The notes: generated from the letters alone by a model not told the origin. DNA of 64,000 bases from Escherichia coli (GCF_030013595.1 NZ_CP122768.1), one strand, 5' to 3'. Shown: positions 19,143 to 58,679, numbered from the stretch's first letter. Numbers and translations are program-made.

Positions 19143-19157
19143 TGGTGTCCCCTGCAG
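19143..19157. repeat. Prophage attL core: 15-bp direct repeat of the argW 3' end (tggtgtcccctgcag)
   Basis: Exact 15-bp copy of the tRNA 3' terminus found at 58665..58679; phage genes lie between the two copies. Confidence 0.7.
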
Positions 19158-19230
19158 ACATCTACTTGAGGCGGCAGGGGATTGATTGGAATGGTGTTTT
19201 TTAGATGTGAAAAATATTTTACCCGCTATT

Positions 19231-19431
19231 TTACCCATTGGCGCGGCTTAAGAGCTTATTTTTGAATTCACAATGGTCACGATATAACCATCTTGCTCGC
19301 CCGTGGATAACTTTGGCTTTTGGCAGGTCGCCGGACTTAATCCGGTCATAGATGAAGGTTTTACCGAATCCAGTATCGGCCATGATGAATTTCAAATCAA
19401 CCAGTGAATCAGGCTGTAGTTCGTGTTGCAT
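19231..19431 (-). CDS. AlpA-family phage transcriptional regulator / putative excisionase
   Basis: 66-aa ORF with small HTH (…LKFIMADTGFGKTFIYDRIKSGDLPKAK…); adjacent to attL. Confidence 0.55.
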   Translation of the reverse strand: MQHELQPDSLVDLKFIMADTGFGKTFIYDRIKSGDLPKAKVIHGRARWLYRDHCEFKNKLLSRANG

Positions 19432-19473
19432 GAGTGCTATCTCCGAATAGGGAATCGAACCTGCAAATCAGGC

Positions 19474-19498
19474 AATAAAAAACCGCCATCAGGCGGCT
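19474..19498 (-). terminator. Rho-independent terminator (minus strand) between the zinc-ribbon gene and the AlpA-like gene
   Basis: GC hairpin aaccgcc/ggcgg followed by a T-run on the minus strand. Confidence 0.5.
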
Positions 19499-19562
19499 TG
19501 GTGTTCTTTCAGTTCTTCAATTCGAATATTGGTTACATTGTTTTAATATATGAATAAATAAA

Positions 19563-19775
19563 TTAGCTTTTTTCGTTGCCTTCGCGTTCTTTATTAATTT
19601 TAACAAACTCGTTTTTACCACGCTCTCCAAATGCGTCTTTAGAGTCGTTGTATCCGCAATCGCAGCACACATAATCACCAGACCATCCACGCATTGTTTT
19701 TTCTTTTGCAATATTTCCAGAACCGCATTTTGGACAAGACATATCACTACCTCCAAAGCATGAGTGAGATGACAA
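19563..19775 (-). CDS. Small zinc-ribbon protein (CPKC...CCDC)
   Basis: 70-aa ORF with two Cys pairs; the overlapping 126-aa ORF in another frame was judged less likely. Confidence 0.4.
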   Translation of the reverse strand: MSSHSCFGGSDMSCPKCGSGNIAKEKTMRGWSGDYVCCDCGYNDSKDAFGERGKNEFVKINKEREGNEKS

Positions 19776-19838
19776 CGTAACATTGATTGGAGATTAACAA
19801 TAGATTGCTGATGTAAAAGATATGTATAAGCTTCGCTT

Positions 19839-20393
19839 TCAAAGTGGAGGCTCTGGTAGCGGCATCCAGTGTGACGGCTCACATACCACCTCAACACCGT
19901 TCATGTAAAAGAATTGAAATAACCCTTTACCTTTGTGAAACCCTACCATCTGCTCTTTTGTGTCTGAACAATAAACCAAAACATCTTCTTCGTTTGGCAT
20001 CCACTCACTACAGCTTATCCAACCATCTGGAATTACCGGAGAGTTGCCCGACATCTCATTCAACTTGTAAGTCTGGCTTACAGGTTTGGCTTCCAGTTCT
20101 GCAATGCGCTTACCTCCATCCGCGATTACTCCCTCGTAATATTCACGCTGCTCGTTGAGTTTTGATTTTGCTTCCTCAAGCTCAACTCTCAGCTTCCCTA
20201 CCGTTAGCGCAATATCCTCGTTCTCCTGGTCACGGCGTTTGATGTATTGCTGGTTTCTTTCCCGTTCATCCAGCAGTTCCAGCACAATCGATGGTGTTAC
20301 CAATTCATGGAAAAGGTCTGCGTCAAATCCCCAGTCGTCATGCATTGCCTGCTCTGCCGCTTCACGCAGTGCCTGAGAGTTAATTTCGCTCAC
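19839..20393 (-). CDS. Prophage early protein, DUF551-like C-terminal domain
   Basis: 184 aa; C-terminal ...PDGWISCSEWMP...HWMPLPEPP resembles the DUF551 family common in lambdoid prophages (recalled). Confidence 0.45.
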   Translation of the reverse strand: MSEINSQALREAAEQAMHDDWGFDADLFHELVTPSIVLELLDERERNQQYIKRRDQENEDIALTVGKLRVELEEAKSKLNEQREYYEGVIADGGKRIAELEAKPVSQTYKLNEMSGNSPVIPDGWISCSEWMPNEEDVLVYCSDTKEQMVGFHKGKGLFQFFYMNGVEVVCEPSHWMPLPEPPL

Positions 20394-20611
20394 TTCGAAC
20401 CTCTCTGTTTACTGATAAGTTCCAGATCCTCCTGGCAACTTGCACAAGTCCGACAACCCTGAACGGCCAAGCGTCTTCGTTCATCTATCGGATCGCCACA
20501 CTCACAACAATGAGTGGCAGATATAGCCTGGTGGTTCAGGCGGCGCATTTTTATTGCTGTGTTGCGCTGTAATTCTTCAATTTCTGATGCTGAATCAATG
20601 ATGTCTGCCAT
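20390..20611 (-). CDS. TraR/DksA-family C4 zinc-finger protein
   Basis: 73 aa with CCECGDPI...CRTCASCQ four-Cys motif. Confidence 0.55.
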   Translation of the reverse strand: MADIIDSASEIEELQRNTAIKMRRLNHQAISATHCCECGDPIDERRRLAVQGCRTCASCQEDLELISKQRGSK

Positions 20612-20709
20612 CTTTCATTAATCCCTGAATTGTTGGTTAATACGCTTGAGGGTGAATGCGAATAATAAAAAAGGAGCCTGTAGCTCCATGATGATTTTGT
20701 TTTTCATGC

Positions 20710-20991
20710 TCACCGTTCCTTAAAGACGCCGTTTAACATGCCGATCGCCAGGCTTAAATGAGTCGGTGTGAATCCCATCAGCGTTACCGTTTCGCGGTGC
20801 TTCTTCAGTACGCTACGGCAAATGTCATCGACGTTTTTATCCGGAAACTGCTGTCTGGCTTTTTTGATTTCATAATTAGCCTGACGGGCAATACTGCGAA
20901 GGGCGTTTTCTTGCTGAGGTGTCATTGAACAAGTCCCATGTCGGCAAGCATAAGCACACAGAATATGAAGCCCGCTGCCAGAAAAATGCAT
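20710..20991 (-). CDS. Hypothetical early protein (start uncertain)
   Basis: ORF in the pL operon, co-oriented with its neighbours. Confidence 0.3.
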   Translation of the reverse strand: MHFSGSGLHILCAYACRHGTCSMTPQQENALRSIARQANYEIKKARQQFPDKNVDDICRSVLKKHRETVTLMGFTPTHLSLAIGMLNGVFKER

Positions 20992-21001
20992 TCAGTGGTT
21001 G

Positions 21002-21193
21002 TCATACCTGGTCTCTCTCATCTGCTTCTGCTTTCGCCACCATCATTTCCAGCTTTTGTGAAAGGGATGTGGCTAACGTATGAAATTCTTCGTCTGTTTC
21101 TACTGGTATTGGCACAAACCTGACTCCAATTTGAGCGAGGCTATGTGCCATCTCGATACTCGTTCTTAACTCAACGGGAGATGCTTTGTGCAT
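21002..21193 (-). CDS. Hypothetical early protein (63 aa), upstream of exo
   Basis: ORF co-oriented in the pL operon; no function assigned. Confidence 0.35.
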   Translation of the reverse strand: MHKASPVELRTSIEMAHSLAQIGVRFVPIPVETDEEFHTLATSLSQKLEMMVAKAEADERDQV

Positions 21194-21344
21194 ACAGCCC
21201 CCCGTTTATTATTTATCTCCTCAGCCAGCCGCTGGGCTTTCAGTGGATTTTGGATAACAGAAAGGCCGGGAAATACCCAGCCTCGCTTTGTAACGGAGTA
21301 GACGAAAGTGATCGCGCCTACCCGGATATTATCGTGAGGATGCG

Positions 21345-22025
21345 TCATCGCCATTGCTCCCCAAATACAAAACCAATTTCAGCCAGTGCCTCGTCCATTT
21401 TTTCGATGAACTCCGGCACCATCTCGTCAAAACTCGCCATGTACTTTTCATCCCGCTCAACCACGACATAATGCAGTCCTTCACGCTTCATACGCGGGTC
21501 ATAGTTGGCAAAGTACCAGGCATCTTTTCGCGTCACCCACATGCTGTACTGCACCTGGGCCATGTAAGCCGACTTTATGGCCTCGAAACCACCGAGCCGG
21601 AACTTCATGAAATCCCGGGAGGTAAACGGGCATTTCAGCTCAAGGCCATTGCCGTCACTGCATAAACCATCGGGAGAGCAGGCGGTGCGCATACTTTCGT
21701 CGCGATAGATGATCGGGGATTCAGTAACATTCACGCCGGAAGTGAATTCAAACAGGGTTCTGGCGTCGTTCTCGTACTGTTTTCCCCAGGCCAGCGCCTT
21801 AGCATTAACTTCCGGAGCCACACCGGTGCAAACCTCAGCCAGCAGGGTGTGGAAGTAGGACATTTTCATGTCAGGCCACTTCTTTCCTGAGCGGGGCTTT
21901 GCTATCACGTTGTGAACTTCTGAAGCGGTGATGACGCCGAGCCGTAATTTGTGCCACGCATCATCCCCCTGTTCGACAGCTCTCACGTCGATCCCGGTAC
22001 GCTGCAGGATAATGTCCGGTGTCAT
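21345..22025 (-). CDS. exo: Lambda-type exonuclease (Red-alpha)
   Basis: 226-aa [43 protein letters not shown]... essentially identical in character to lambda Exo. Confidence 0.9.
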
Positions 22026-22807
22026 GCAGCCACCTTCTGTTCAGAGGCTTTCTGTTTCAGGAATCCAAGAGCTTTCACTGCTTCGGCCTGTGTCAGTTCT
22101 GACGATGCGCGAATGTCGCGGCGAAATATCTGGGAACAGAGCGGCAATAAGTCGTCATCCCATGTTTTATCCAGGGCGATCAGCAGAGTGTTAATCTCCT
22201 GCATGGTTTCATCGTTAACCGGAGTGATGTCGCGTTCCGGCTGGCGTTCTGCAGTGTGTGCAGTATTTTCGACAATGCGCTCGGCTTCATCCTTGTCATA
22301 GATACCAGCAAATCCGAAGGCCAGACGGGCACACTGAATCATGGCTTTATGCCGTAACATCCGTTTGGGATGCGACTGCCACGCCCCCGTGATTTCTCTG
22401 CCTTCGCGAGTTTTGAATGGTTCGCGGCGGCATTCATCCATCCATTCGGTAACGCAGATCGGATGATTACGGTCCTTGCGGTAAATCCGGCATGTACAGG
22501 ATTCATTGTCCTGCTCAAAGTCCATGCCATCAAACTGCTGGTTTTCATTGATGATGCGGGACCAGCCATCAACGCCCACCACCGGAACGATGCCGTTCTG
22601 CTTATCAGGGAAGGCGTAAATTTCTTTCGTCCACGGATTAAGGCCGTACTGGTTGGCGACGATCAACAATGCGATGAACTGCGCATCGCTGGCATCACCT
22701 TTAAATGCCGTCTGGCGAAGAGTGGTGATCAGTTCCTGTGGGTCGACAGAATCCATGCCGACACGTTCAGCCAGCTTCCCTGCCAGCGTTGCGAGTGCTG
22801 TACTCAT
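22022..22807 (-). CDS. bet: Lambda-type recombinase Bet (Red-beta single-strand annealing protein)
   Basis: 261-aa [40 protein letters not shown]...; overlaps exo start. Confidence 0.9.
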
Positions 22808-22812
22808 CCGTT

Positions 22813-23109
22813 TTATACCTCTGAATCAATATCAACCTGGTGGTGAGCAATGGTTTCAACCATGTACCGGATGTGTTCTGCCATGCGCTCCTGAAACTCA
22901 ACATCGTCATCAAACGCACGGGTAATGGCTTTTTTGCTGGCCCCGTGGCGTTGCAAATGATCGATGCATAGCGATTCAAACAGGTGCTGGGGCAGGCCTT
23001 TTTCCATGTCGTCTGCCAGTTCTGCCTCTTTCTCTTCACGAGCGATCTGCTGGTAGTGACGCGCCCAGCTCTGAGCCTCAAGACGATCCTGAATGTAATA
23101 AGCGTTCAT
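22813..23109 (-). CDS. gam: Gam, RecBCD inhibitor (short form; the long form may start upstream)
   Basis: 98-aa [41 protein letters not shown]... Confidence 0.85.
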
Positions 23110-23184
23110 GGCTGAACTCCTGAAAATGGCTGTGAAAATAGCGCCCGCGAAATGCCAGGCTGATTAGGAAAACAGGAAAGGGGG

Positions 23185-23328
23185 TTAGTGAATGCTTTTG
23201 CTTGATCTCAGTTTCAGCATTAATATCCATTTTTTATAAGCGTCGACGGCTTCACGAAACATCTTTTCATCGCCAATAAAAGTGGCGATAGTGAATTTAG
23301 TCTGGATAGCCATAAGTGTTTGATCCAT
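23185..23328 (-). CDS. kil: Kil (host-killing FtsZ inhibitor), 47 aa
   Basis: Internal start of the 89-aa ORF gives [36 protein letters not shown]...SSKSIH, matching lambda Kil. Confidence 0.7.
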
Positions 23329-23461
23329 TTTTTGGGACTCCTGGCTGATTAAGTATGTCGATAAGGCGTTTCCATCCGTCACGTAATTTACGGGTGATTC
23401 GTTCAAGTAAAGATTCGGAAGGGCAGCCAGCAACAGGCCACCCTGCAATGGCATATTGCAT
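23297..23461 (-). CDS. cIII: cIII (FtsH inhibitor), 54 aa; below the ORF-track length cutoff
   Basis: Manual translation of the minus strand: [54 protein letters not shown]. Confidence 0.7.
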   Translation of the reverse strand: MQYAIAGWPVAGCPSESLLERITRKLRDGWKRLIDILNQPGVPKNGSNTYGYPD

Positions 23462-23533
23462 GGTGTGCTCCTTATTTATACATAACGAAAAACGCCTCGA
23501 GTGAAGCGTTATTGGTATGCGGTAAAGCCGCGC

Positions 23534-23845
23534 TTAGGCGGCTGATGTTTCTTCTTTCAGGCTTTCGAGATATTTACGTGGGTCGTCGTAACATTGGCAT
23601 TCGCTGTACCAATCCACCCAGCGATCAGTAAGCCCCACCTCTGATAAATCTTCATCGGTAAGGCTCTCATCCCACATCTCAAGGCCGTTAGCATTGCAGT
23701 AATCAGGCTTGATGTTGTTGTCATACTGAAAGGCGTCATAATCAGCCAGTGCGTCCATCAGGCGAACACCCTCTTCAACACTTGCCACTTCTACAATGAA
23801 CGGCTTCATAGGTACTTGCGGGATATGCCAGACACGTAATTTCAT
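23534..23845 (-). CDS. Hypothetical early protein (position of lambda ea10)
   Basis: 103-aa acidic Cys-containing ORF co-oriented in the pL operon. Confidence 0.45.
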   Translation of the reverse strand: MKLRVWHIPQVPMKPFIVEVASVEEGVRLMDALADYDAFQYDNNIKPDYCNANGLEMWDESLTDEDLSEVGLTDRWVDWYSECQCYDDPRKYLESLKEETSAA

Positions 23846-23989
23846 ATTTCCTCCGTCAAAAAAATGCCCTCACACTGGAGGGCAAAGAAGATTTCCAATA
23901 ATCAGAACAAGTCGGCTCCTGTTTAGTTACGAGCGACATTGCTCCGTGTATTCACTCGTTGGAATGAATACACAGTGCTTATTCGCAGC

Positions 23990-24397
23990 CTACATAATCA
24001 TTCCGGTTATTATTACCATTTCAATATCGCTATCTTTCATAATGATTGGAGTTGAGTTATCAACTTTACTTTTACTCCATTTTCCTGCATCAGTTTTTAC
24101 CGCTCCACAATAAGAAAGCCAATCATCATCACAATGTTCTGGATCACTAATTCTGACAAGAACACGTGATAGTGCTTTTTCGATACTTTCATCACAATTA
24201 GCATTTGTGTAATTGCCGTGAGACAATTTCAAATCGTTAACTTCATCTTCATTGGCATCAAAAATATAGATTTCAGTCGACTCTGGAACATTTTCATAAA
24301 CCATTAAAACTTTCATTTTTACCCCATATTGTTTATGCCAAAAATAAAGGCCACCATTAGGCAGCCTTGTTGTTCTGTTTACCAAGTTCTCTGGCAA
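23990..24397 (-). CDS. AT-rich accessory ORF (moron) of unknown function between ral and the ea10-position gene
   Basis: 135-aa ORF (possibly starting at internal Met MKVLMVYENVPE...); local GC clearly lower than its neighbours. Confidence 0.4.
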   Translation of the reverse strand: MPENLVNRTTRLPNGGLYFWHKQYGVKMKVLMVYENVPESTEIYIFDANEDEVNDLKLSHGNYTNANCDESIEKALSRVLVRISDPEHCDDDWLSYCGAVKTDAGKWSKSKVDNSTPIIMKDSDIEMVIITGMIM

Positions 24398-24557
24398 TCA
24401 TTGCCGTCGTTCGTATTGCCCATTTATCGACATATTTCCCATCTTCCATTACAGGAAACATTTCTTCAGGCTTAACCATGCATTCCGATTGCAGCTTGCA
24501 TCCATTGCATCGTTTGAATTGTCCACACCATTGATTTGTATCAATAGTCGTAGTCAT
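24357..24557 (-). CDS. ral: Ral, restriction alleviation protein
   Basis: 66-aa ORF MTTTIDTNQWCGQFKRCNGCKLQSECMVKPEEMFPVMEDGKYVDKWAIRTTAMIARELGKQNNKAA, matching lambda Ral as recalled. Confidence 0.75.
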   Translation of the reverse strand: MTTTIDTNQWCGQFKRCNGCKLQSECMVKPEEMFPVMEDGKYVDKWAIRTTAMIARELGKQNNKAA

Positions 24558-24685
24558 ACGGATAGTCCTGGTATTGTTCCATCACATCCTGAGGATGCTC
24601 TTCGAACTCTTCAAATTCTTCTTCCATATCTCACCTCAAATAAGTGGTTTGCTGCCTAATTTCATTTTCTGGCGACCAACACAAG

Positions 24686-24958
24686 TCATCTTGCTGTCAG
24701 CTGTTTGGATTTCCTGTAGCCTGCCGCGTAAATGGCTACATTTGGAAGACAAGTTGAGCCTTCATATTTTCTGGTCAACGTTGTCAGTGTTATTACTTCT
24801 GCTCTCATTACTGGTTTGCGTTTGCATTGTAAGACCACTCGTGAAGGGGTTGGCCTGTGTAGCTTGTCAGAGCTGATCGCCTCCTGACTTTGCAGGTTTG
24901 CACGACGAGCTCTACGGCGAGAAGCTGCGGTGCCTTTAAATTCTGTTTTTCTGGACAT
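24686..24958 (-). CDS. N-like transcription antiterminator (arginine-rich motif; P22 gp24-like C-terminus)
   Basis: Arg-rich motif ASRRRARRA near the N-terminus; C-terminus ...VAIYAAGYRKSKQLTAR resembles P22 gp24; start set at internal Met. Confidence 0.65.
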   Translation of the reverse strand: MSRKTEFKGTAASRRRARRANLQSQEAISSDKLHRPTPSRVVLQCKRKPVMRAEVITLTTLTRKYEGSTCLPNVAIYAAGYRKSKQLTAR

Positions 24959-25397
24959 AGATTCCTCCCGAATAAACTTTGGCGATGCAATCTCGAAGCT
25001 CCTCCTGAGACGGTTGCTTCGGCATTGCATCCCACAGCTTATATGGTTGGGTGATCTGGCTTTTCAGCCACGTAGTCGAGTGTTCGACGTTGTTTAAAGA
25101 GCCTGCCAGTCTGCTCCGTTTGGCTTACAGCGTCCTGCTGACGGTTAAATAGTACGATATGTACTTTATTGGGTCAATACAATTTGTTCTAAAATGGGGT
25201 GATTTTTTATAACGCTTTGTATTTAATAGTGTTGTTTTTTAGCGTGGGTGTATCGCCTCGGCGATGTAAGGAGAGATCAGAATTGCGTGGTTTAGTGAGT
25301 TGTATCTATTTATTTTTCAATAAATACATTTGGTTATGTGTCTTTAGGTGGGGGCGTGAGGCAAAGAAAACCCGGCTCGGTGGCCGGGTTGATGGGA

Positions 25398-26255
25398 TTA
25401 TCGTTTATTTCTTTGATGTTTCTTTGCTGACTCAGCTTGAGTGTTTCCATACCTGCGTTTACCGCTATTGTTTTTTCCTCTAGGCTTGCCTTTTTTTCGA
25501 TCTTCCCACCAGTCAGGTGCCGGGTCTGGCTCAACATGTAAAGCATCGGCAAGTCCTGATATCAAGCTGTATGACTGAACTCCATCAATGTGCTCTGACA
25601 GTGATGGGGTAACATTCTGTCTTAGTGGATCAAGAATAAAATCAATACCTTTAATTCTGGCGTGTTTGGCGGCAGGCACAAAGTCTGAGTCCCCAGCAAC
25701 AAGGACAATTACATCAACAAGTTTTTCATAAGCTAAAGTCGTGATATCCATCCCTAGCTTGATATCAACTTGTTTTTGTTTGATGTCATAGTAAAAATCA
25801 TCATTTGTCAGTTCATCCCATTTTTTCGTTCCTTTCATCAGAGCATCAAGGGAGAATGTAGTTAGTTGCCATCGCTTATTATCAACAAGATTCCCTAATC
25901 TTAAGGCTGTTTTTCGAGTTTTTCTTAACTCTTCATGCAGCTCCGTTCTCAGAATATATGATTTTTCGAGTTTGAAATTCTTGCGACCAGGCGTCTTATT
26001 GCCAGGCTCAGGAAGTGGAAGGCGTGTTTGAATGTCGAGTGGTGGACAGTCATAGAAGTAAATTCTATAAAGCTCAAGCGGTTCCCTACGTTCTTGTGAT
26101 TGACGTTTTCCATTAAGATGGGAAAGAACCATTGACCATATTACTTTCATTATGCATTGCGCAGTCAGTTCATGCTCGGCGAAGTGTTTACGATGCGTAG
26201 CATGAACACGCTGCATGAAAAAACCCGCATCAATTAAAATTGCTGCTTTCTTCAT
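25398..26255 (-). CDS. NYN-domain (LabA/PIN-like) putative nuclease, in the position lambda uses for rexAB
   Basis: 285 aa; N-terminal MKKAAILIDAGFF and VIVLVAGDSDFVPAAKHARIKGIDFIL motifs typical of NYN domains; lies between cI and the pL/N region. Confidence 0.65.
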   Translation of the reverse strand: MKKAAILIDAGFFMQRVHATHRKHFAEHELTAQCIMKVIWSMVLSHLNGKRQSQERREPLELYRIYFYDCPPLDIQTRLPLPEPGNKTPGRKNFKLEKSYILRTELHEELRKTRKTALRLGNLVDNKRWQLTTFSLDALMKGTKKWDELTNDDFYYDIKQKQVDIKLGMDITTLAYEKLVDVIVLVAGDSDFVPAAKHARIKGIDFILDPLRQNVTPSLSEHIDGVQSYSLISGLADALHVEPDPAPDWWEDRKKGKPRGKNNSGKRRYGNTQAESAKKHQRNKR

Positions 26256-26263
26256 AAGAGTCC

Positions 26264-26323
26264 CAAAAAAATAGCCCAGAGCCGTTATGCAGATATTAAC
26301 AATTGTCTGCGAACGGGGCTGGG
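26264..26323 (-). terminator. Hairpin + T-run (minus strand) between the cI stop and the NYN gene start
   Basis: Inverted repeat gcccagagccgtt...aacggggctgggc followed on the minus strand by TTTTTTT. Confidence 0.45.
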
Positions 26324-26382
26324 CTTGGTTTAATTAATCTATGCCAAGTTGACTGTGCCGTCAACATAAAACTTACTTCCTA

Positions 26383-27042
26383 TCACCCAAACGTCTCTTC
26401 AGGCCACTGACTAGCGATAACTTTCCCCACAACGGAACAACTCTCATTGCATGGGATCATTGGGTATTGTGGGTTTAGTGGCTGTAGAAACACCTGACCG
26501 CTATCCCTGATCAGTTTCTTGAAGGTAAACTCATCACCACCAAGTCTGGCTATACAGAAATCGCCTGGCTCAACAGCCTGCTCAGGGTCAACCAGAATTA
26601 ACATCCCGTCAGGAAAGCTGGGCTTGGATCCTGTTGGTGCGGTCATGGAATTACCTTCAACCTCAAGCCAGAATGCAGAGCCACTGGCTTTTTTGGTTGT
26701 GCTTACCAATCTCTCCGCATCGCCTTTGGTAAAGGTTCTGAGTTCTGGAGAGAACATCCCAGCCTGAACATGAGAAAATACAGGGTACTCATATTGTTTT
26801 TTAACTGGGGCCGATGAGTATTCGCCAACAGGTGAAAATGTCCCGTCGTGGTTGAATGATATGTTATCAATACCAAGGTATTTAAACACCACACCAATAT
26901 CACTAAGAGATGGATGACGAGATCCGCGCAACCAGTGTCCAATCCCACCCTGCGTCATACCTAGCTCTTCGGCTAACTTCTCTTGAGTTATGCCGAGCTC
27001 TTTCATTCTGGATCTAGCCAGTTCATACCATTTCATTTTCAT
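26383..27042 (-). CDS. cI: cI-type prophage repressor (HTH_XRE + S24 LexA-like autopeptidase)
   Basis: N-terminal HTH (…[25 protein letters not shown]…) and C-terminal S24 peptidase-like domain; start could also be 27084 or 27036. Confidence 0.85.
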
Positions 27043-27152
27043 GTCCTTATTATTACGCTCTGTACTGGAACCATCAATGCACAATGTGTATTTTTGCTTG
27101 TATTTGGAAAGTACATATTGTATTTTTTATTCGAGGTTACTATGGAGGGCAT

Positions 27153-27368
27153 ATGAGCAACCTACGAAAATATCGAGAGTCACTGAATATCTCTCAAACA
27201 ACACTTGCTAAGGCAGTTGGATGCACACAGGGAGCTATCGGACATTGGGAATCTGGTCGTCGCTTCCCAGACCTTAAAACATGCCGTGCTCTTGTTGCGT
27301 GCCTAAATAAGTTAGGCGCAAAAGTAAGTCTTGATGACGTGTTCCCGCCGGAACACAAAGCCGCTTAA
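27153..27368 (+). CDS. cro: Cro-like HTH repressor
   Basis: 71 aa MSNLRKYRESLNISQTTLAKAVGCTQGAIGHWESGRR...; SD GGAGGG 4 nt upstream; divergent from cI. Confidence 0.8.
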   Translation: MSNLRKYRESLNISQTTLAKAVGCTQGAIGHWESGRRFPDLKTCRALVACLNKLGAKVSLDDVFPPEHKAA

Positions 27369-27509
27369 TAAGCGGAGCCGCTCTTTGTAACAACGGACAT
27401 TCGTCCTACGTCGCTGAAAAGCGAGTCCCAAGATATCTGACCAACTAAGGCCATATGCGTTTCCACGCATACCTTTCAACTAACTATTCACTATTGGAAA
27501 TCTTAAGAA

Positions 27510-27806
27510 ATGGAACGAACAAGTTACAGCAAACTATCACAGCGTGACGTTGATCGCGCAGAAACAGATTTACTCATCAACCTATCAACGCTTACCCAGC
27601 GCGGTCTGGCAAAGATGATTGGCTGTCATGAATCGAAGATAAGCAGAACGGACTGGAGATTTATTGCTTCGGTCTTGTGTGCTTTCGGAATGGCATCAGA
27701 CATCAGTCCGATTAGCAGGGCTTTTAAGTATGCGCTTGATGAAATCACAAAGAAAAAATCCCCGGCCGCCACCGAGGATTTTAAGCAAATTGATATGCAA
27801 TTCTGA
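27510..27806 (+). CDS. cII: cII-like transcriptional activator
   Basis: 98 aa; C-terminal ...KKKSPAATEDFKQIDMQF resembles the lambda cII tail; position after cro. Confidence 0.65.
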   Translation: MERTSYSKLSQRDVDRAETDLLINLSTLTQRGLAKMIGCHESKISRTDWRFIASVLCAFGMASDISPISRAFKYALDEITKKKSPAATEDFKQIDMQF

Positions 27807-27838
27807 GGGAATTACTGGATCAATCTACAGGGGTCATT

Positions 27839-29436: not shown

Positions 29437-29723
29437 CGGGCAAAGAGGCAATTATTCATTACCTGGGGACGCATAATAGCTTCTGTGCGCCGGACGTTGC
29501 CGCGCTAACAGGCGCAACAGTAACCAGCATAAATCAGGCCGCGGCTAAAATGGCACGGGCAGGTCTTCTGGTTATCGAAGGTAAGGTCTGGCGAACGGTG
29601 TATTACCGGTTTGCTACCAGGGAAGAACGGGAAGGAAAGATGAGCACGAACCTGATTTTTAAGGAGTGTCGCCAGAGTGCCGCGATGAAACGGGTATTGG
29701 CGGTATATGGAGTTAAAAGATGA
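29433..29723 (+). CDS. ren: Ren (protection from Rex exclusion)
   Basis: 96-aa ORF MTGKEAIIHYLGTHNSFCAPDVAALTGATVTSINQAAAKMARAGLLVIEGK..., matching lambda Ren as recalled. Confidence 0.8.
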   Translation: MTGKEAIIHYLGTHNSFCAPDVAALTGATVTSINQAAAKMARAGLLVIEGKVWRTVYYRFATREEREGKMSTNLIFKECRQSAAMKRVLAVYGVKR

Positions 29724-43790: not shown

Positions 43791-43799
43791 GAGACAAGC

Positions 43800-47933: not shown

Positions 47934-47942
47934 GGTGGGAAT

Positions 47943-51430: not shown

Positions 51431-51448
51431 CTGGTTAGCCATGGATGG

Positions 51449-51637
51449 TTATTTCCTTAGCACATGAAACAATGTTTGCTTTAATTCCACCCATACAATT
51501 ATGACCACTATAGACAGACAAAAGAAACTGAATGCATTGGCATCACGATCGAAACCTTCTCCGGCACTAAATCCGTAAAAGGTCATAAAAAATATAAAAA
51601 TTGCGCACTTTGCAACGTTTACAAATTTTTTCTTCAC
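51449..51637 (-). CDS. Small hydrophobic membrane protein (62 aa, two predicted TM helices), antisense to the tail operon
   Basis: GTG start 5 nt after a perfect AAGGAGG SD on the minus strand; strongly hydrophobic translation. Confidence 0.5.
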   Translation of the reverse strand: MKKKFVNVAKCAIFIFFMTFYGFSAGEGFDRDANAFSFFCLSIVVIIVWVELKQTLFHVLRK

Positions 51638-52011
51638 ACCAACCTCCTTAGTTTTGCTCAGGATACCAGATGATACTTTATTGGTGGAGTGGTGTGTGAA
51701 AACGTGTCAACGACAAACCATCCACAACTTGGACGAATGATTTAGCAAAAAGTGCTATTTTTGGTGTTTAGTGTCATAGAAAAGTGAATAGCTCACTTTT
51801 CAACATTGCATGAAACTTGCAGGAAATGTGACATTACCTTATAGGTAATTTCGGCGAAAATGCAGTAAATGTGAAACGTAATGGTTTAAACATGTCGCTA
51901 AAGTGGTTGTAAGTTAGCCTCCGAAGGATTGCTGATAGCTTTGTTATAGTATTAAATGACATTTGACATAGTTGGATACTTAGCTGTGGCTATCAAGATG
52001 GAGGTGTGTTC

Positions 52012-52455
52012 ATGCTTACTTGTTTTGATGTCGCCGACTACTTCCTGTCGCGGTGTGACGAGGATAGCGGTGACACAATCTCTAATTTAAAATTACAAAA
52101 GCTTGTTTACTATGCTCAGGGGTTTTCATTGGCGTTGCTTGGTGAGCCTCTTTTTCAGAATAAGATGGAAGCTTGGATGCATGGCCCTGTTGTCCCTGAG
52201 CTTTATCGCCGTTATAAACAATATGGTAATGGAGCTATCCCTTCTCCAGAGTCTTTTGATGCTGAAAAATTCAGCGAAGAACAGTTAGAGCTATTAGAAG
52301 AAGTCTGGGATGTTTTTGGGCAATTTTCTGCCTGGAAACTGAGGAACATGACACACGAAGAGTCACCATGGAGATCAAACTATATTGAGGGTGTTGGTGG
52401 TTCTGAAATTAGCTCTAAGGAGATGGCAGAGTACTTTGCAACTCGGATTAACTAA
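52012..52455 (+). CDS. Panacea/DUF4065-like (SocA/GepA-type) protein, putative antitoxin-type component
   Basis: MLTCFDVADYFLSRC...NLKLQKLVYYAQGFSLALLGEPLF...AWMHGPVVPELY matches the recalled DUF4065 signature; GAGGTG SD upstream. Confidence 0.55.
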   Translation: MLTCFDVADYFLSRCDEDSGDTISNLKLQKLVYYAQGFSLALLGEPLFQNKMEAWMHGPVVPELYRRYKQYGNGAIPSPESFDAEKFSEEQLELLEEVWDVFGQFSAWKLRNMTHEESPWRSNYIEGVGGSEISSKEMAEYFATRIN

Positions 52456-52459
52456 CGAG

Positions 52460-52879
52460 ATGGCAAGAAAATCTAAAAGGATTATCCCCCCTGCTGAATC
52501 TACAGGTAAGTTAAAGTTAGGGCCGCAGTCAGGGGGGAATTCAGATCAAAAGAAACCGAAATTTTCATTCTGTTACATCCAAAGCTCTCACTGCATAACG
52601 AAATGCCAAAAAGATGAGAAAGCTGGCTTAGCTGATAAATTATACAGATTAAGTCAACTAACATGGGCAGAGATTAAGCAGCAAGGTAGGCATAAGCTTG
52701 GATTTGAGAAGATTGCAAGGGGTGCAATTAAAGCTGGTATCCCCGGTCATATAACGGAAGACGTAGATCATTTCTTGGCTTTTAGATTTGATGATTTGAA
52801 AGCCATGGTTGGTTATCGTCTTGGATCGACATTTTTTGTTATATGGCTTGATAGAGAGTTCAACCTATACAAGCACTAA
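52460..52879 (+). CDS. Unknown partner protein (139 aa), translationally coupled to the Panacea-like gene; candidate toxin/effector
   Basis: ATG 4 bp after the upstream stop; basic N-terminus, Cys/His cluster, C-terminal ...GYRLGSTFFVIWLDREFNLYKH; strong terminator follows. Confidence 0.5.
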   Translation: MARKSKRIIPPAESTGKLKLGPQSGGNSDQKKPKFSFCYIQSSHCITKCQKDEKAGLADKLYRLSQLTWAEIKQQGRHKLGFEKIARGAIKAGIPGHITEDVDHFLAFRFDDLKAMVGYRLGSTFFVIWLDREFNLYKH

Positions 52880-52881
52880 TA

Positions 52882-52908
52882 AAACCCACCGTCAGGTGGG
52901 TTTTTTTG
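52882..52908 (+). terminator. Rho-independent terminator ending the two-gene operon
   Basis: cccacc-gtca-ggtggg hairpin followed by TTTTTTT. Confidence 0.75.
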
Positions 52909-52923
52909 TTGGAGATAAAATGG

Positions 52924-53127
52924 TTAACCAAATCGATCCTTAAAGCGTCTATCGCTGTTGCGTCTCTCCATTTTACTGTTGCAGTACGGACAAAGATGCT
53001 GTTTCTTTCCATCGATAGTCCATGTGAAGTACTTTTTCTTAAATCCAGCACCACAGATATCGCAACTTCTTGGTTTAAACATACTGGCTATGAAGATAAG
53101 AACAACAAATCCTATGATCCATTCCAT
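52924..53127 (-). CDS. Small membrane-anchored zinc-ribbon protein (67 aa)
   Basis: N-terminal TM helix MEWIIGFVVLIFIASMF followed by CDICG...CPYC zinc-ribbon pattern. Confidence 0.35.
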   Translation of the reverse strand: MEWIIGFVVLIFIASMFKPRSCDICGAGFKKKYFTWTIDGKKQHLCPYCNSKMERRNSDRRFKDRFG

Positions 53128-53268
53128 ATCATGTACCTGTTTTAACTTTATTTTTTGATTTTTAGGGATTAATCAGAAACTTTATCTTGCGATTAAGCAA
53201 AGCTACTAGCTAACAAAAGAGTGCGTATACAATCAATCGTTTCACATCAACCTCAACAAGGAGAAATC

Positions 53269-53454
53269 ATGACCATAGAAGAACGCCTGAACAACATTGA
53301 GTTGAACCAAACCCTGCTTGACCAGCGACTTTCAGATCTTGAGCTTAAAGATCTGGATGCGCAAATATCAGAAGCAGAAGCCAAGCTCTCCAGCTTAAAC
53401 CACCGCAAGAAGCAAATCCGCAACAGAATTACTCAGGGACGCGGAAGCCGTTGA
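53269..53454 (+). CDS. Small coiled-coil protein (61 aa)
   Basis: ATG preceded by AAGGAG SD at ideal spacing; heptad-like MTIEERLNNIELNQTLLDQRLSDLELKDLDAQISEAEAKL. Confidence 0.4.
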   Translation: MTIEERLNNIELNQTLLDQRLSDLELKDLDAQISEAEAKLSSLNHRKKQIRNRITQGRGSR

Positions 53455-53463
53455 AATCCTAGT

Positions 53464-53781
53464 CTATTTTTTCTCAGAGCTCATATTGTAATAGGTGGTA
53501 TAAATAGAGATTGATTTCTGACATGCTTCAAGAAATTGCTGCGGAGTCATCCCGAGCCTTGCTTGCTCTGTAGTAAGGAATCTCTGTAAGAATTCATTCC
53601 CACCTGGCATGTTTGTAGATTCTTGGAATATTGCCATTTGTTTGATTGCACCACACATACCAGCCATTTTAGAAGCTATCATGAGGCCTTGTATTTCATC
53701 AAAACTGCTATCGTCTGATTTTGTTTCTGCGTTAGCTATGCTCGAGAGACACAGGAGCAATAGGATAGCGATACGTTTCAT
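53464..53781 (-). CDS. Secreted/periplasmic protein (105 aa, cleavable signal peptide), co-transcribed with the mnt-like gene
   Basis: MKRIAILLLLCLSSIANA signal sequence; start overlaps the mnt-like stop (ATGA). Confidence 0.5.
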   Translation of the reverse strand: MKRIAILLLLCLSSIANAETKSDDSSFDEIQGLMIASKMAGMCGAIKQMAIFQESTNMPGGNEFLQRFLTTEQARLGMTPQQFLEACQKSISIYTTYYNMSSEKK

Positions 53782-54029
53782 TTTTCACCATTGCCATGCA
53801 TACATTTTAACTTCTCAACATCATGCTCAAGCTCTATCAGTCGCGATGCTATAGTTGCAAGATCTAGTGCTTGAATGTGTTTGTTTTTTTCGGTCCATGC
53901 TTCAAGTGCTGCGACCATCTCAGCATTTAATGAACGAGAATTAGCCTCAGCCAGTTCAATAAGACGTTCCTTTATCTCTACAGGAAGCCTCAGATTCACT
54001 TGAGGGTTTTTGTACTTACGATCAGACAT
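53778..54029 (-). CDS. Mnt-like ribbon-helix-helix repressor (Arc/MetJ family)
   Basis: 83 aa; N-terminal ...NLRLPVEIKERLIELAEANSRSLNAEMVAALEAW RHH fold; divergent from the arc/ant pair as in P22 immI. Confidence 0.7.
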   Translation of the reverse strand: MSDRKYKNPQVNLRLPVEIKERLIELAEANSRSLNAEMVAALEAWTEKNKHIQALDLATIASRLIELEHDVEKLKCMHGNGEK

Positions 54030-54104
54030 CGGCGCATCCTGAATAATTTTTTACCACAGGATATGTAGGTATCTATTGACTATCAATGCGTACCTAAATA
54101 CTAT

Positions 54105-54121
54105 GTATGCGTACCACATAC
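54105..54121. promoter_or_regulatory. Candidate operator: imperfect palindrome GTATGCGTACCACATAC with ATGCGTACC repeated 21 bp upstream
   Basis: In the divergent mnt-like/arc-like intergenic region, just upstream of the arc-like start. Confidence 0.4.
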
Positions 54122-54133
54122 AAAGGAGCAAAA

Positions 54134-54280
54134 ATGAAAGTTAAGACATTAAGGATGCCAGAATGGCTGGAAAAGGCTTTGGAGCAGTCCGCGAAAAAGG
54201 ATGATCGGTCGTTCAGTAATGAGGTATTGAGGAGACTAAAGGAGTCAGTAGCTAAGGATGGAATTGTTTGTCCAGAATGA
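54134..54280 (+). CDS. Arc-like ribbon-helix-helix repressor (48 aa; below ORF-track cutoff)
   Basis: Manual translation MKVKTLRMPEWLEKALEQSAKKDDRSFSNEVLRRLKESVAKDGIVCPE; GGAG SD upstream; precedes the ant-like gene. Confidence 0.55.
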   Translation: MKVKTLRMPEWLEKALEQSAKKDDRSFSNEVLRRLKESVAKDGIVCPE

Positions 54281-54346
54281 GTAAAGCCCAAGCTATTGCG
54301 AGTAGCTCGGGCTTAAATCGCCAGTAAATTTTGAGGAAAAACTGAC

Positions 54347-55276
54347 ATGAAAAGTATAGCAACAGCAGTATCTACTATCAACGTGCCATTCCACGGCGCA
54401 GAGCTTTATGTCGTCAATCACAACGGTGAGCCGTACACCCCAATGAAACCTATCGTTGAAGGTATGGGTATGGATTGGGCTTCACAGTTTACGAAAATAA
54501 AGCAACGGTTTAAAACCTCCATTGTGAAAATCACAATGCAGCTTCCTGGTGATGAACAGTGCCGTGAGATTATTTGTTTGGCACTTCGCAAACTTGCTGG
54601 CTGGCTGCAAACCATCAGTCCAAACAAAGTCCGCCCTGAAATCCGCGACAAGGTAATCCAGTATCAGGAAGAGTGTGACGATGTGCTATACGAGTACTGG
54701 ACTAAAGGCCATGTAGTTAACCCACGCAAAGCTAAAAAGGCGTTGCCGGGTAAAATCACCACTGAACAGCAGGAAGCCATTAAACAACTCGTCATGAGTC
54801 GCGGTCAGTCTCTGCCAAAAGAAAAACAGGCTAAGGCGATGATCACCATGTGGTCGTCACTGAAATCCCATTTTGGATGTTCGTACAAAGAAATCAGTGA
54901 GGAGCAGTTTACCGAAGCACTGTCACTTGCTGCTCGAGTTCCACTTGAAGGTGAGTTCATTGGCAAACAAGAGAAGAAAACCAACGAGCTTTCTGCAAAA
55001 GAAGCAAACAGCCTTGTATGGCTCTGGGATTATGCTAACCGTTCACAGGCATTATTCCGCGAATTGTATCCGGCGCTAAAACAAATTCAATCGAACTATT
55101 CCGGCAGATGCTACGACTACGGTCATGAATTCTCGTATGTTATCGGAATGGCGAGAGACGTTTTAATCAATCACACACGAGATGTTGATATTAATGAGCC
55201 AGACGGACCAACGAATCTTTCCGCATGGATGAGACTTAAGAATAAAGAATTACCTCCTTCAGTACATAACTACTGA
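54347..55276 (+). CDS. Antirepressor (Ant-like)
   Basis: 309-aa ORF following the arc-like gene, in the position of P22 ant. Confidence 0.6.
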
Positions 55277-55376
55277 CAGATAACCAACGCAACGACCCAG
55301 CTTCGGCTGGGTTTTTTTATGCCCAAAATTCACCGTGGCCACGCTGCGGCGATTCATTGTATCTGGAGCAAATTAA

Positions 55377-57272
55377 ATGACAGACATTACAGCCAATGTG
55401 ATCGTATCGATGCCTTCGCAACTCTTCACTATGGCGCGTTCTTTTAAAGCCGTAGCCAATGGCAAAATTTATATAGGGAAAATTGACACTGACCCGGTAA
55501 ATCCTGAAAACCAGATTCAGGTTTATGTGGAGAATGAAGATGGCTCTCACGTTCCTGTTTCGCAACCAATAATCATTAACGCTGCCGGATATCCGGTATA
55601 TAACGGACAGATTGCCAAGTTCGTAACTGTGCAAGGCCATTCTATGGCTGTTTATGATGCGTATGGGGCGCAGCAGTTCTATTTTCCTAATGTGCTGAAG
55701 TATGACCCTGACCAATTAAGACAGGAGCTATCTAAGCAGACTGATGGTTATTTTTTTAACCTTCCTCAAGGTGGTGTACTACATGATGCAATAAAGTATG
55801 TAACACCAGAAATGTATATCAATACATCTTCAGATATTACATCTGCTATACAAAGTGCATTTGACAATGGAAATGTGATTGATATGTCAGGTAGAGACTG
55901 GACTCTTGAGAGAACAATCCATGTCGGTGATGGCACTGAAATAAAGTTAGGCGCATCAACAATTACATGTCAACTTGGTTCTAAACCTGCTTTTGACTTT
56001 AGAGGAACAGATAAAGGACTCCTGGTCACAGGAGGTAAGTTTATTGGTAATTGCTCTGCAGTATTTTATTTCCAAGGGACTACTGCTTTCCCTTCTCAAT
56101 CAGGTCACTATGCAAGAAAAATAAGAATATACGGCACAGATGCTACTTCAGATACGGATGAGATAATTGATTTCATCTATATGAAGGACGCTGTAAGGCA
56201 AGTTTTTATTGATTCATGTTATGCATATGTAAAAAACGGCATTACTGCAAGCGGGAAATGTGTGGAGGTGAAAGTCCAAAAAAGCATATTCAACTCAGGA
56301 ACTTCCGATCAAAGTTCTTCTAGGATAAGTCTAAATTCACCGTCAGGAGCAAGTTATTACAACGAAGGTTGGCATTTTAGTGATTGTACAATTGATGGAG
56401 TTGGAAAATCATTTAATGTTACCGATATATATTCGTTAACCATCAATGGAGGATTTATCGGTGGTGAGGTTGCGTTTGGACAGCCAATAACAACACATTG
56501 CCGTGAGATCGTACTCGGTGGTGGATTAATCATGAAAGGGCGTGTTACTTTCACGCCAACCGTACAATATGACTACAGGGCCAACATATCTCCTTCTCTT
56601 ATGTTTGGTAATGGTGGAGTTGGAAACGTGGTCCTTAATGCAGGTGCTTCAGGCATCAACGTTAGCACAAAACTTGAAAGTTCTGGTGTTTCAGGAGGAA
56701 CTGGCGTTATTGTTAATGAAGGATGTTCTAATGTTAACGTTGACCTGAGCGCTGATAATACGTATGAAAGACTGGCGTCATTCAATGGTTACGGACCAAG
56801 GTGTTCCGCTTTGATACGTAACTACATGGGAAGCTCTCACCCAATTTATACAGAGCGACCATTAAAGATTATATCATCGCCTGTCACTGACGACGCTGGT
56901 TCTCTGCAGGTTATGAGTTTTGTAAATATACCAGCAGGAAGCTATATTGTTGGTTCTGTTATGTCTGAGGTGAAAGTGACTGCACCAAAAGGTTCTAGAG
57001 GGAAAATTTCTCTTACCATTTCACTGAGTGGATTAACAGGCACATCTTCACAGGCGCTTATTGTAAATATTCCTGCCGGAATGGTTACCCCATCCGGTTT
57101 AGGTTGGGCTTCAAATGTTATTAGACCTCAGTTTGCGGCTGGAATAATGAGTATTGAAATACCATTTTATACAACCACAGACATTGCAGAATCCTCATTA
57201 TCTGTATCTAATTTCTCAGGAAATACAGCAATTGTTGGACTAAACTCTTACATTGGATATTTTTTGATATGA
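55377..57272 (+). CDS. Tailspike protein: conserved P22/Sf6/HK620-type head-binding domain + divergent beta-helix receptor-binding domain
   Basis: N-terminal ~113 aa [60 protein letters not shown]...VLKYDPDQ; remainder Gly/Ser/Thr/Asn-rich and repetitive. Confidence 0.85.
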
Positions 57273-57348
57273 TAGGAAATATCGTGTGAGAAAAATTATC
57301 GCAAAGCATCTAAACATGTGAAGATGGTGAGATACTTTGCGATATCAA

Positions 57349-58539
57349 TTATTCATTTTCATCAAGCCAGTCCGCCCACCACTGCATCATTTCTCTGCGC
57401 TTGTCTAGATACTGAGCATGGTTGTAAATCCCACGCACAGATCCGCCGTTGGCATGTGCCAGTTGCACTTCAATAGCGTCAGCAGGCCATTCGTGCTCGT
57501 TCATAATTGTGCTGAATTCATGCCTGAATCCGTGACCGCTTTCCAGACCCTCATAGCCGATTTGTTTGATCACAAGCAATACCGCGTTCTCGCAGATTGG
57601 CTTCTTCTTATCGTTGCGCCCTGCAAAAACAAACTCTGATACTGGTTTGGTGATGGAGCTTAACGTAGTGAGAAGTTCAACCACCTGGTCTGACATCGGG
57701 ACCACATGAATTTTGCGTCCCTTCATCACGCTGGCGTCGATGGTGATAATCCTGTTTTCAAAATCGACGTTCTTCCATTGCATGGAGCGAAGCTCTTTCG
57801 TTCTTAGGGCTGTATAACGTAAAACTTTTGTCGCAATAAGCGATACGATACTTCCTGAAAATGTTGCCAGTGCTTTGTTGAATGCCGGGATCTGGTCTGC
57901 AGGAAGAAACGGGAAGTTCTTCTTGCGGTATCCTTTCATGGCGTCTGCAAGGTCAGGTGCCGGGTTATATTTAGCCCTTCCGGTGACAATAGCGTAACGG
58001 AAAACCTCTCCGCATCTTCTGCGGGCTTTGTTGGCTCGCTCCATTGCACCGCGATCTTCAAACCTGCGGATTACTTCAAGAAGTTGCATCGGCTCAATAT
58101 CCTGAATTTCAAGACCGCCGATGATGGGTAAAATGTCGTCATCAAACATTTTGGCAAGTTCAGTCGCATACCCTACAGACCAGACTTGCTTCTTGTGCTC
58201 GTACCATTCCTTGTAAATGGCGCTAAAGGAATTGTTGTTAGACGAAGCCTTTTTCGCTTTTACCGGATCGATGCCAACCGAGATGTCTTTCCTCGCAGTC
58301 CATGCTTTATCCCTTGCCTCTTGCAAAGTCATAAGCGGATATTTTCCGACGGTCAGGATTTTCTCCTTACCGTCAATCTTGTAGCGAAGCTGCCATACCT
58401 TTTTCCCGGATACAGGGACATAAAGGTACAATCCATTACCATCGAGAAGGCGGTATGGTTTTTCTTTCGGCTTTGCTGCTTCAATCTGCTTAACGGTGAG
58501 CATGGGTAAAAATCCGGTGGGTAAAATTATTTTATCCAC
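57349..58539 (-). CDS. intS: Tyrosine integrase, P4-type (IntS-like); start possibly at internal Met 58503
   Basis: ...MLTVKQIEAAKPKEKPYRLLDGNGLYLYV... with C-terminal catalytic region (HGFRH ... Y); directly adjacent to argW. Confidence 0.9.
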   Translation of the reverse strand: MDKIILPTGFLPMLTVKQIEAAKPKEKPYRLLDGNGLYLYVPVSGKKVWQLRYKIDGKEKILTVGKYPLMTLQEARDKAWTARKDISVGIDPVKAKKASSNNNSFSAIYKEWYEHKKQVWSVGYATELAKMFDDDILPIIGGLEIQDIEPMQLLEVIRRFEDRGAMERANKARRRCGEVFRYAIVTGRAKYNPAPDLADAMKGYRKKNFPFLPADQIPAFNKALATFSGSIVSLIATKVLRYTALRTKELRSMQWKNVDFENRIITIDASVMKGRKIHVVPMSDQVVELLTTLSSITKPVSEFVFAGRNDKKKPICENAVLLVIKQIGYEGLESGHGFRHEFSTIMNEHEWPADAIEVQLAHANGGSVRGIYNHAQYLDKRREMMQWWADWLDENE

Positions 58540-58664
58540 TTTTTACCCGTCATGGAGTGCGGCTGTCAACGATCTGACGCGAACCATTACGAACTGTGAA
58601 TCTACGGAAGGCTTGATATTCAGGGGATTTTGCGGACTGGTACGGATGGGAGCGAACTGATAAA

Positions 58665-58679
58665 TGGTGTCCCCTGCAG
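58665..58679. repeat. Prophage attR core: 15-bp direct repeat (tggtgtcccctgcag) within the argW 3' end
   Basis: Exact copy of 19143..19157. Confidence 0.7.

Follow-up and report, generated by a model that had tools for sequence, protein, structure and literature searches.

The window analysed here, a stretch of 64,000 nucleotides of Escherichia coli DNA (GCF_030013595.1, NZ_CP122768.1) whose positions are counted from its first letter on one strand, contains between 19143 and 58679 an element which, judging by its ends and its gene content, is very probably a 39.5-kb temperate P22-like podovirus (genus Lederbergvirus) lysogenising E. coli at the tRNA gene argW by means of an IntS/TorI recombination module. 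Thus equipped, it stands within the genus beside HK620, Sf6, CUS-3, Kapi1, Louie and E212. The original prediction had described a mosaic prophage bounded by 15-bp direct repeats in which a lambda-like early region is joined to a P22-like virion module, and this composition was confirmed, such a make-up being normal for the genus and free of any unusual joint. The element is a P22-like prophage with clear bounds at the hotspot argW, and it illustrates the usual shuffling of modules among lambda, P22, Sf6/HK620 and newer coliphages; its coordinates are fit for confident masking and annotation, and its significance beyond annotation is small.

Exactly two copies of the 15-mer TGGTGTCCCCTGCAG are present in the window, on the plus strand at 19143-19157 and 58665-58679, against no match in 100 shuffles; the element thereby delimited measures 39,537 bp with both core copies and 39,522 bp with one. 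A complete tRNA-Arg(CCT) gene, argW, lies on the minus strand at 58665-58739 (ARAGORN; Rfam tRNA, 63.4 bits), its matches being annotated as tRNA-Arg beside yfdC in the matching E. coli genomes, and therefore the right 15-mer, read in reverse complement, gives the final 15 nt of the tRNA, CCA end included. In fact, the proposed equality of both repeats with the 3' end of argW held in full. The right copy is thus the attL core, whereas the left one, on the torI side, is the attR core, with host DNA to its left and an attP arm of the HK620 type to its right. The repeat is not extendable, since the flanking bases differ between the copies (to the left C against A, to the right A against G). By simple arithmetic, an exact pair of 15-mers of some kind in 64 kb is not rare by chance, and the significance of this pair comes from the tRNA end, the adjoining integrase gene and the reconstructions of attB and attP. 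A third or degenerate att copy was sought across the window, allowing up to 3 mismatches, and the sole extra match, with 3 mismatches at 42120 inside the scaffold gene, is at chance level, so that there is no sign of a tandem or composite element.

The length of the core deserves a comment. An att core of 16 nt has been described for KplE1 (PMC2951348) and one of 17 nt for Kapi1, the attP of Sf6, HK620 and KplE1 equalling that of Kapi1 save one 5' A (PMC8787464); the HK620 and Sf6 records likewise annotate a 16-nt attP core, at 1368-1383 and 18099-18114, respectively. The published core ATGGTGTCCCCTGCAG is found at the 3' end of argW, with 15 of its 16 nt duplicated at both prophage ends and the 16th differing in the host flank only. 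The duplicated core is 15 nt here because the host flank carries C where the phage carries A.

Two reconstructions fixed the boundaries. For attB, 700 nt of the left flank were joined to the sequence from 58665 onwards, with a single copy of the core, and this construct was searched for in 5,426 complete E. coli genomes. It is present at a coverage of at least 80% in 1411 of them, the best matches consisting of one unbroken piece (100% coverage, 99.9% identity) with the order cscB (an MFS transporter), DUF4942 fragment, tRNA-Arg and yfdC. In strain AF39, the 75 nt about the junction equal the construct base for base, with 3 mismatches in 1415 nt overall, and the annotation gives the locus order emrKY, dsdA, truncated dsdX, cscRAKB, argW, yfdC and mlaA. 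On this comparison, the insertion is precise at the 15-mer. As regards attP, the prophage ends are contiguous in the free phage HK620, where window positions 57356-58679 correspond to 60-1383 (96%) and 19143-19877 to 1369-2103 (99%), with an overlap of exactly 1369-1383, that is, the 15-mer at the annotated attP core. The ends are contiguous in Sf6 too (16791-18114 and 18100-18493, the overlap being the 15-mer at the annotated core), and likewise in Louie, again with the 15-mer as overlap. Moreover, a simulated excision junction joining 58664, the core and 19158 (...GATAAA-TGGTGTCCCCTGCAG-ACATCTAC...) is identical to the attP of HK620 at 407 of 415 positions. The predicted boundaries at the 15-bp repeats are thus borne out by the empty attB of 1411 genomes and by the attP of three phages, and comparative genomics placed them nowhere else.

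Between the truncated dsdX and the att site there are a 50-aa DUF4942 fragment (18781-18933) and the csc genes, an arrangement which suggests an older insertion and raises the question of whether the true mobile unit is larger, namely a composite argW island including the csc sucrose genes and the DUF4942 remnant left of 19143. Nevertheless, the same 1411 genomes have cscB, the DUF4942 remnant and argW contiguous and prophage-free, no further core copy, even a degenerate one, was found leftward, and in HK620, Sf6 and Louie the 15-mer is the exact end of the phage attP, which together make such an island extremely improbable.

The recombination module would account for integration at this site. 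The gene at 57349-58503, on the minus strand, encodes a tyrosine integrase of the IntS type (384 aa; phrog_1), with 98-99% aa identity to the integrases of Sf6, HK620 and Louie and with orthologues which PGAP names IntS. The P4-type integrase abutting the tRNA that had been predicted was recovered at the level of architecture, with an N-terminal Arm-DNA-bind_3/DUF4102 domain (PF13356, E=4.4e-25), Phage_int_M (PF22022) and a C-terminal Phage_integrase domain (PF00589, E=2.8e-39), the IntS family being the more precise assignment. Its match to the NCBIfam model PRK09692 extends across the full length with 237.9 bits, the model cut-off being 434, and by this score the protein is related to the model but outside that curated subgroup. 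At the end opposite to int, as in KplE1 and HK620, lies the gene of a 66-aa excisionase, or recombination directionality factor, of the TorI type (19231-19431, minus strand; phrog_66), whose product is 100% identical to HK620 HkaC, Sf6 gp18 and Louie xis; HkaC and gp18 have been equated with TorI in the literature (PMC3509656).

Both att arms are 96-99% identical to the attP region of HK620. The attR arm (19158-19240) contains two TTTTACCC motifs, at 19217 and 19229, and the attL arm (58504-58664), which matches the region holding the intS promoter in KplE1 (PMC2951348), contains three TTTTACCC/GGGTAAAA motifs, at 58504, 58519 and 58541. In the whole window TTTTACCC has 12 copies versus 1.7 expected, five of them within 160 bp of the cores, and these clustered motifs are candidate arm-type sites for IntS in both arms, which fits the TAAA motif carried by the arm sites of KplE1 (PMC2951348). 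The att core and the module as such have been described for KplE1, HK620, Sf6 and Kapi1 (PMC2951348, PMC3509656, PMC8787464).

Genes were assigned by PHROG, Pfam and BLAST, with phage-family matches for all substantial open reading frames (ORFs) between the cores, and the order thus obtained (Red, immunity, replication, nin, Q, lysis, P22-type virion, immI, tailspike and integrase) agrees with the predicted one. The whole element was compared with six references, and the alignment to P22, Sf6, HK620 and lambda revealed a mosaic of these four together with E212 and Louie. Lambda matches about 9.0 kb at 94-98% (20091-23542, ral, the C-terminal half of cI, 27745-30237, Q with the stretch after it, and S-R-Rz); E212, which was isolated from sewage, matches 24511-33948 (N through Q, 9.4 kb) at 99.8%; and Louie matches 37404-49431 at 94-96%, as well as int and the att region. 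The matches of HK620 comprise att, xis and int, the genes from roi to Q and the lysis genes, those of Sf6 comprise gp10, the needle and the tRNA pair, and P22 agrees at about 78% of the nucleotides from terL to gp10.

The whole element was found in no single record among 50,697 phage records and the 5,426 complete E. coli genomes, none of which covers at least 80% of either half. This result, and the fact that long near-identical stretches among lambdoid prophages can mislead assemblers, might be taken to indicate a chimera assembled from a lambda-like and a P22-like prophage of one genome. Most block joints, however, are bridged by independent genomes: E212 spans the block N through Q and, separately, the lysis genes with terS/terL, Louie spans terS to gp20 and int-attP-xis, Salmonella phage Emek spans immI to the head-binding region of the tailspike, and E. 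coli JX2 extends from the receptor-binding domain into intS, with the caveat that two short stretches, 19878-20090 and 23543-24328, are covered at 90% or more by none of the six references. Moreover, the reading frames are intact across the joints and 39.5 kb fits the 38-42 kb of P22-like genomes, so an assembly artefact is hardly credible.

The relation to each of the known systems can be stated in more precise terms. HK620 and Sf6, members of Lederbergvirus which integrate at argW, share with the element the attP core and arms (96-99% nucleotide identity), IntS (98-99%), TorI (100%), the overall gene order, gp10 (98%) and a needle with knob (97% to Sf6); in addition, HK620 shares the roi-to-Q and lysis blocks (94-97%), and Sf6 has the same tRNA-Asn/tRNA-Thr pair after Q. 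Unlike these phages, the element has a terminase, portal, scaffold and coat of the P22/Louie type (25-34% aa identity to those of Sf6/HK620), carries lambda Red and not Erf or Sak4, replicates with lambda O/P and not with a DnaB-type helicase, and has a different receptor-binding domain, with no O-antigen modification gene between tailspike and int; it also has the full mnt/arc/ant immI, of which HK620 keeps remnants only. Louie (PQ850616) is alike from terS to gp20 (94-96% nucleotide identity) and in int-attP-xis (97-98%), but its early region and its tailspike differ, and an HNH insertion separates its scaffold from its coat. E212 (MZ043897) agrees at 99.8% over 9.4 kb in the genes for N, the NYN-like protein, cI, cro, cII, O, P, nin and Q, whereas its head module, its integrase (21% identity) and its early-left arm are others.

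P22 itself has the same virion gene order, with aa identities of 100% for TerS, 92% for TerL, 85% for the scaffold, 77% for the portal and 72% for the coat, an exact pac, the same immI layout and the same type of tailspike head-binding domain. It integrates, however, at thrW with an unrelated int/xis arrangement, has erf/abc and genes 18/12 where the element has Red and O/P, carries gtrABC and sieA, and has a sar RNA which Rfam detects in P22 and not in the element. With lambda, the common stretches (about 9 kb at 94-98%) run from the ea22 region through exo, bet, gam, kil and cIII, and include ral, the C-terminal half of cI, the end of cII through O, P, ren and ninB, Q with the stretch after it, and S, R and Rz, but the element is devoid of the lambda head and tail genes, of the cos site and of the lambda int, xis and attP, and its immunity specificity differs because the N-terminal domain of cI, cro and N are not those of lambda. 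Finally, KplE1 (CPS-53), a cryptic prophage of E. coli K-12, has the argW site, the core sequence and the IntS/TorI module with int and excisionase at opposite ends in common with the element (PMC2951348, PMC3509656), although KplE1 is a 10.2-kb remnant which has neither repressor nor virion genes, whereas the element is full size, and the duplicated core is of 16 nt in KplE1 and of 15 nt here.

With regard to the state of the prophage, the P22-type genes for the head and the tail machine are present in order (terS, terL, portal, scaffold, coat, gp4, gp10, gp26, gp14 and gp7/gp20/gp16), with PHROG matches covering the full profiles, and every essential gene is full length compared with its homologue in lambda, P22, Sf6, HK620, E212 or Louie, all of them phages that have been grown. 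Among the annotated genes, no truncated essential gene, frameshift, transposase or insertion sequence was found, and none of the annotated ORFs is a long-tail gene (tail tube, tape measure). The intactness of the essential modules, which had been predicted, was upheld by these full-length genes and by the conservation of the pac site, the iterons and the cI cleavage residues, and the element, at 39.5 kb, is of a length found among the reference genomes (38-42 kb). Taken together, the full-length genes, the conserved cI residues, iterons, pac and immI, and the length make an active SOS-inducible prophage the best reading, and it is likely that the element can be induced; the activity of its parts and this inducibility are deduced from boundaries, gene content, full-length genes and conserved cis sites that are directly observed.

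Some points weigh against this reading. The exact mosaic has no plaque-forming precedent, with the best single record covering 59-71% of each half; gp16 and the receptor-binding domain of the tailspike have only distant relatives among isolated phages, so that their function is less certain; and sequence is no guide to promoter activity, missense defects or actual induction. A cryptic (defective) prophage, in which subtle damage, such as missense changes, mutated promoters or operators, or modules that do not fit together, blocks excision or the formation of infectious particles, would be compatible with a full mosaic found in no database record, with a gp16 and a receptor-binding domain far from those of any isolated phage, and with an activity which the sequence does not reveal. 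Nevertheless, it has to be set against the lack of truncated genes, frameshifts and insertion sequences, the full length of the essential genes, the intact pac site, origin iterons and cI cleavage residues, the att arms 96-99% identical to those of HK620 and the N-through-Q block 99.8% identical to that of an isolated phage, E212, and a defective state is accordingly considered unlikely.

If the prophage is active, its cycle can be proposed as follows. An IntS-type integrase would have recombined the attP core of the phage with its 15-nt counterpart, identical in sequence, at the argW 3' end, leaving int proximal to the tRNA (attL), the TorI-type excisionase distal to it (attR) and the tRNA intact. 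In the lysogen, a cI repressor with a lambda-type self-cleaving C-terminal domain would keep PL and PR shut, with the mnt/arc-controlled antirepressor of immI as a second circuit. DNA damage would bring about RecA-stimulated cleavage of cI, antitermination by N would allow the expression of TorI, the Red genes and O/P, and IntS and TorI would excise the element at the 15-bp core. Replication would begin at the lambda-type origin inside O, Q would switch on the late operon, DNA would be packaged by the headful mechanism from the P22 pac site, and short-tailed virions with needle, ejection proteins and an O-antigen-type tailspike would be set free on lysis of the cell by S, R, Rz and Rz1.

The early-left genes are on the minus strand. 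They comprise accessory genes at 19517-21354 (eaG/ea22-like, a DksA-like zinc finger and homologues of lambda orf61, orf63 and orf60a, by PHROG and BLAST), the lambda Red genes exo, bet and gam at 21345-23109 (PHROG; 97-98% aa identity to lambda, full length), and kil and cIII at 23185-23474, with the cIII RNA thermometer (Rfam Lambda_thermo, 23416-23474, 88.5 bits), the stretch 20091-23542 being 97.5% identical to lambda 30093-33544. These are followed by a P22 gene-17-like gene, orf135 and ral (23534-24557; PHROG, BLAST) and by an N-type antiterminator (24686-25030; phrog_271) 100% identical to that of phage E212. Between PL and cI there is a 285-aa NYN-domain-like accessory gene (25398-26255, minus strand; phrog_5783; Pfam NYN, E=1.1e-8), 100% identical to its E212 homologue, which occupies the slot of lambda rexAB; the NYN nuclease match is weak and phrog_5783 is a family of unknown function. 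The gene is a candidate for an exclusion or defence function.

The repressor gene is of the cI type (26383-27078, minus strand; phrog_4), its start being taken from the E212 annotation. Its C-terminal domain is a nearly exact match to that of lambda cI, in which the Ala-Gly cleavage site and the catalytic residues Ser and Lys are conserved, and its N-terminal domain is of the E212/Louie type. On the plus strand, cro (27153-27368; matches to HTH regulators), with a start read from the sequence, is 100% identical to that of E212 and 92% to that of Louie, and is followed by cII (27510-27806; phrog_191). The lambdoid order (cIII, N, cI, cro, cII, replication genes, nin, Q and lysis) is present, with PL and PR divergent, and a simple search for shared words and palindromes, aimed at operators, gave one 11-mer, AAAGTACATAT, shared between the PL and PR regions. 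The replication genes O and P (27839-29436, plus strand; 98-99% aa identity to lambda) contain the lambda origin iterons at 28187-28271, three of the four being exact and the fourth having one mismatch. Then come ren and the nin region (29433-33056, plus strand), with ninB, an N6-adenine methyltransferase, ninE/F-like genes, roi, an HNH-like gene, rusA and ninH, all within the E212-like block 24511-33948, and the Q antiterminator with a downstream stretch matching the late-promoter region of lambda (33053-33948, plus strand; phrog_127; 97.4% to lambda 43875-44781). We take the part after Q, up to 33948, to hold PR', qut and tR', as in lambda. Between Q and the holin gene, a phage-borne pair of tRNA-Asn(GTT) and tRNA-Thr(TGT) genes was detected by ARAGORN and Rfam (33951-34106, plus strand), the same pair standing at the same place in Sf6, whose record notes similarity to phage 21.

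The lysis cassette (34349-35736, plus strand) consists of S, R, Rz and Rz1 (35349-35555), together with orf50, all of full length and 90-100% identical to lambda, HK620 and Sf6 genes. Next, also on the plus strand, are rha, an AT-rich moron, orf80a (36692-36934), and a DUF2560-type orf80 (35942-37324; PHROG, BLAST). Just 5' of the AT-rich ORF, an Rfam int-alpA RNA match was found (window 36610-36985; 42 bits versus a gathering score of 35.8; fold z-score -2.95). This 80-aa ORF has no PHROG match and has an apparent terminator-like hairpin of its own, and the segment comprising both RNA match and ORF is lacking in Sf6, HK620 and P22, and only 14 of the 5,426 E. coli genomes have it at a coverage of at least 80%.

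The small and large terminase genes are of the P22 type (37404-39369, plus strand; PHROG, BLAST). TerS and P22 gp3 have 100% protein identity, and an exact copy of the P22 pac 22-mer lies inside terS, at 37671-37692, from which packaging is presumably by the headful mechanism. In this context, the strain may release transducing phage. The remaining virion genes, on the same strand, are those of portal, scaffold and coat (39370-43755; 98-99% aa identity to Louie and 72-85% to P22, all full length), orf100, gp4, gp10, the gp26 tail needle with knob and gp14 (43752-47266; the needle being 97-98% identical to those of Sf6 and Louie), and the ejection proteins gp7, gp20 and gp16, the last with a transglycosylase region (47253-51430; PHROG, BLAST).

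The least familiar stretch of the element is that from 49.5 to 57.3 kb. The gp16 protein is divergent yet full length, with 32% identity to the Sf6 protein, and a sequence search of PDB returned no match for it; a megablast query of 49300-57350, which opens with gp16, matched phiv205-1 in four pieces, starting from query base 1, which together account for 30% of the query at 97%. After gp16, in the slot of P22 sieA, lies a DUF4065/SocA-like gene with a downstream 139-aa gene (52006-52879, plus strand), a homologous region being present in Salmonella phage Emek and in E212. The first of these genes matches NCBIfam SocA_antitoxin with 71 bits, below the cut-off of 190; its 139-aa partner has a weak PADLOC match to NsnC and had no match in NCBIfam and Pfam family scans, nor had orf105 in the NCBIfam scan. 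The pair may be a toxin-antitoxin or an exclusion pair. When PADLOC was applied to ten accessory ORFs, weak matches only were obtained (HEC-09/NYN; NsnC, 1.4e-5; LmuB, 0.0055) and no recognised defence system.

The immI region (53778-55276; PHROG, BLAST) contains mnt (53778-54029, minus strand), arc (54134-54280, plus strand) and ant (54347-55276, plus strand). It is 94% identical to that of Salmonella phage Emek, and the full-length Ant protein is 58% identical to P22 Ant. The sar antisense RNA was not found by Rfam in 53400-55300, the same search detecting sar in P22, which leaves either a diverged sar sequence or another regulation of ant.

The tailspike gene (55377-57272, plus strand) joins a P22 head-binding domain (aa 1-113; Pfam Head_binding, E=1.4e-66), to which all its PDB matches are confined (P22 and Sf6 tailspike N-termini), to a rare receptor-binding domain (aa ~125-631, window 55750-57272). 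The latter has at most 33% identity to any tailspike in the 50,697 phage records, contains no domain detectable with Pfam or PDB, and its DNA was found in one of the 5,426 complete E. coli genomes, that of JX2, within another P22-like prophage at argW. It looks like a rare host-range specificity, and the tailspike would be potentially useful for O-antigen typing or as a depolymerase, provided that its target is identified. The mildly unusual items of the element are accessory only, namely this tailspike domain, the NYN-like gene, the DUF4065-like pair and the AT-rich moron after the int-alpA-like RNA motif. Any real novelty would lie in the accessory cargo (receptor-binding domain, NYN-like gene, DUF4065/SocA-like pair) and not in the prophage itself, and it is conceivable, although doubtful, that this cargo provides a new O-antigen or capsule specificity or enzyme type, or exclusion or defence functions as yet undescribed.

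In the host DNA to the left, 16468-18933 holds csc sucrose-utilisation genes (cscK, cscB), with the 50-aa DUF4942 fragment (18781-18933, minus strand) directly beside the att site, and AF39, with the matching left flank, also has a truncated dsdX, which suggests an older history of insertion and deletion at the argW-dsd locus. Farther left of the prophage, the region 5000-11000 is of low GC content (0.39-0.42) and is probably evg/emrKY, as placed by the AF39 annotation only. On the other side, between mlaA and the region toward fadL, there is a 424-aa ORF (60978-62252, minus strand) within a stretch of low GC content (0.37-0.40), at a variable site outside the prophage where AF39 has a hypothetical protein and JX2 has yfdF.

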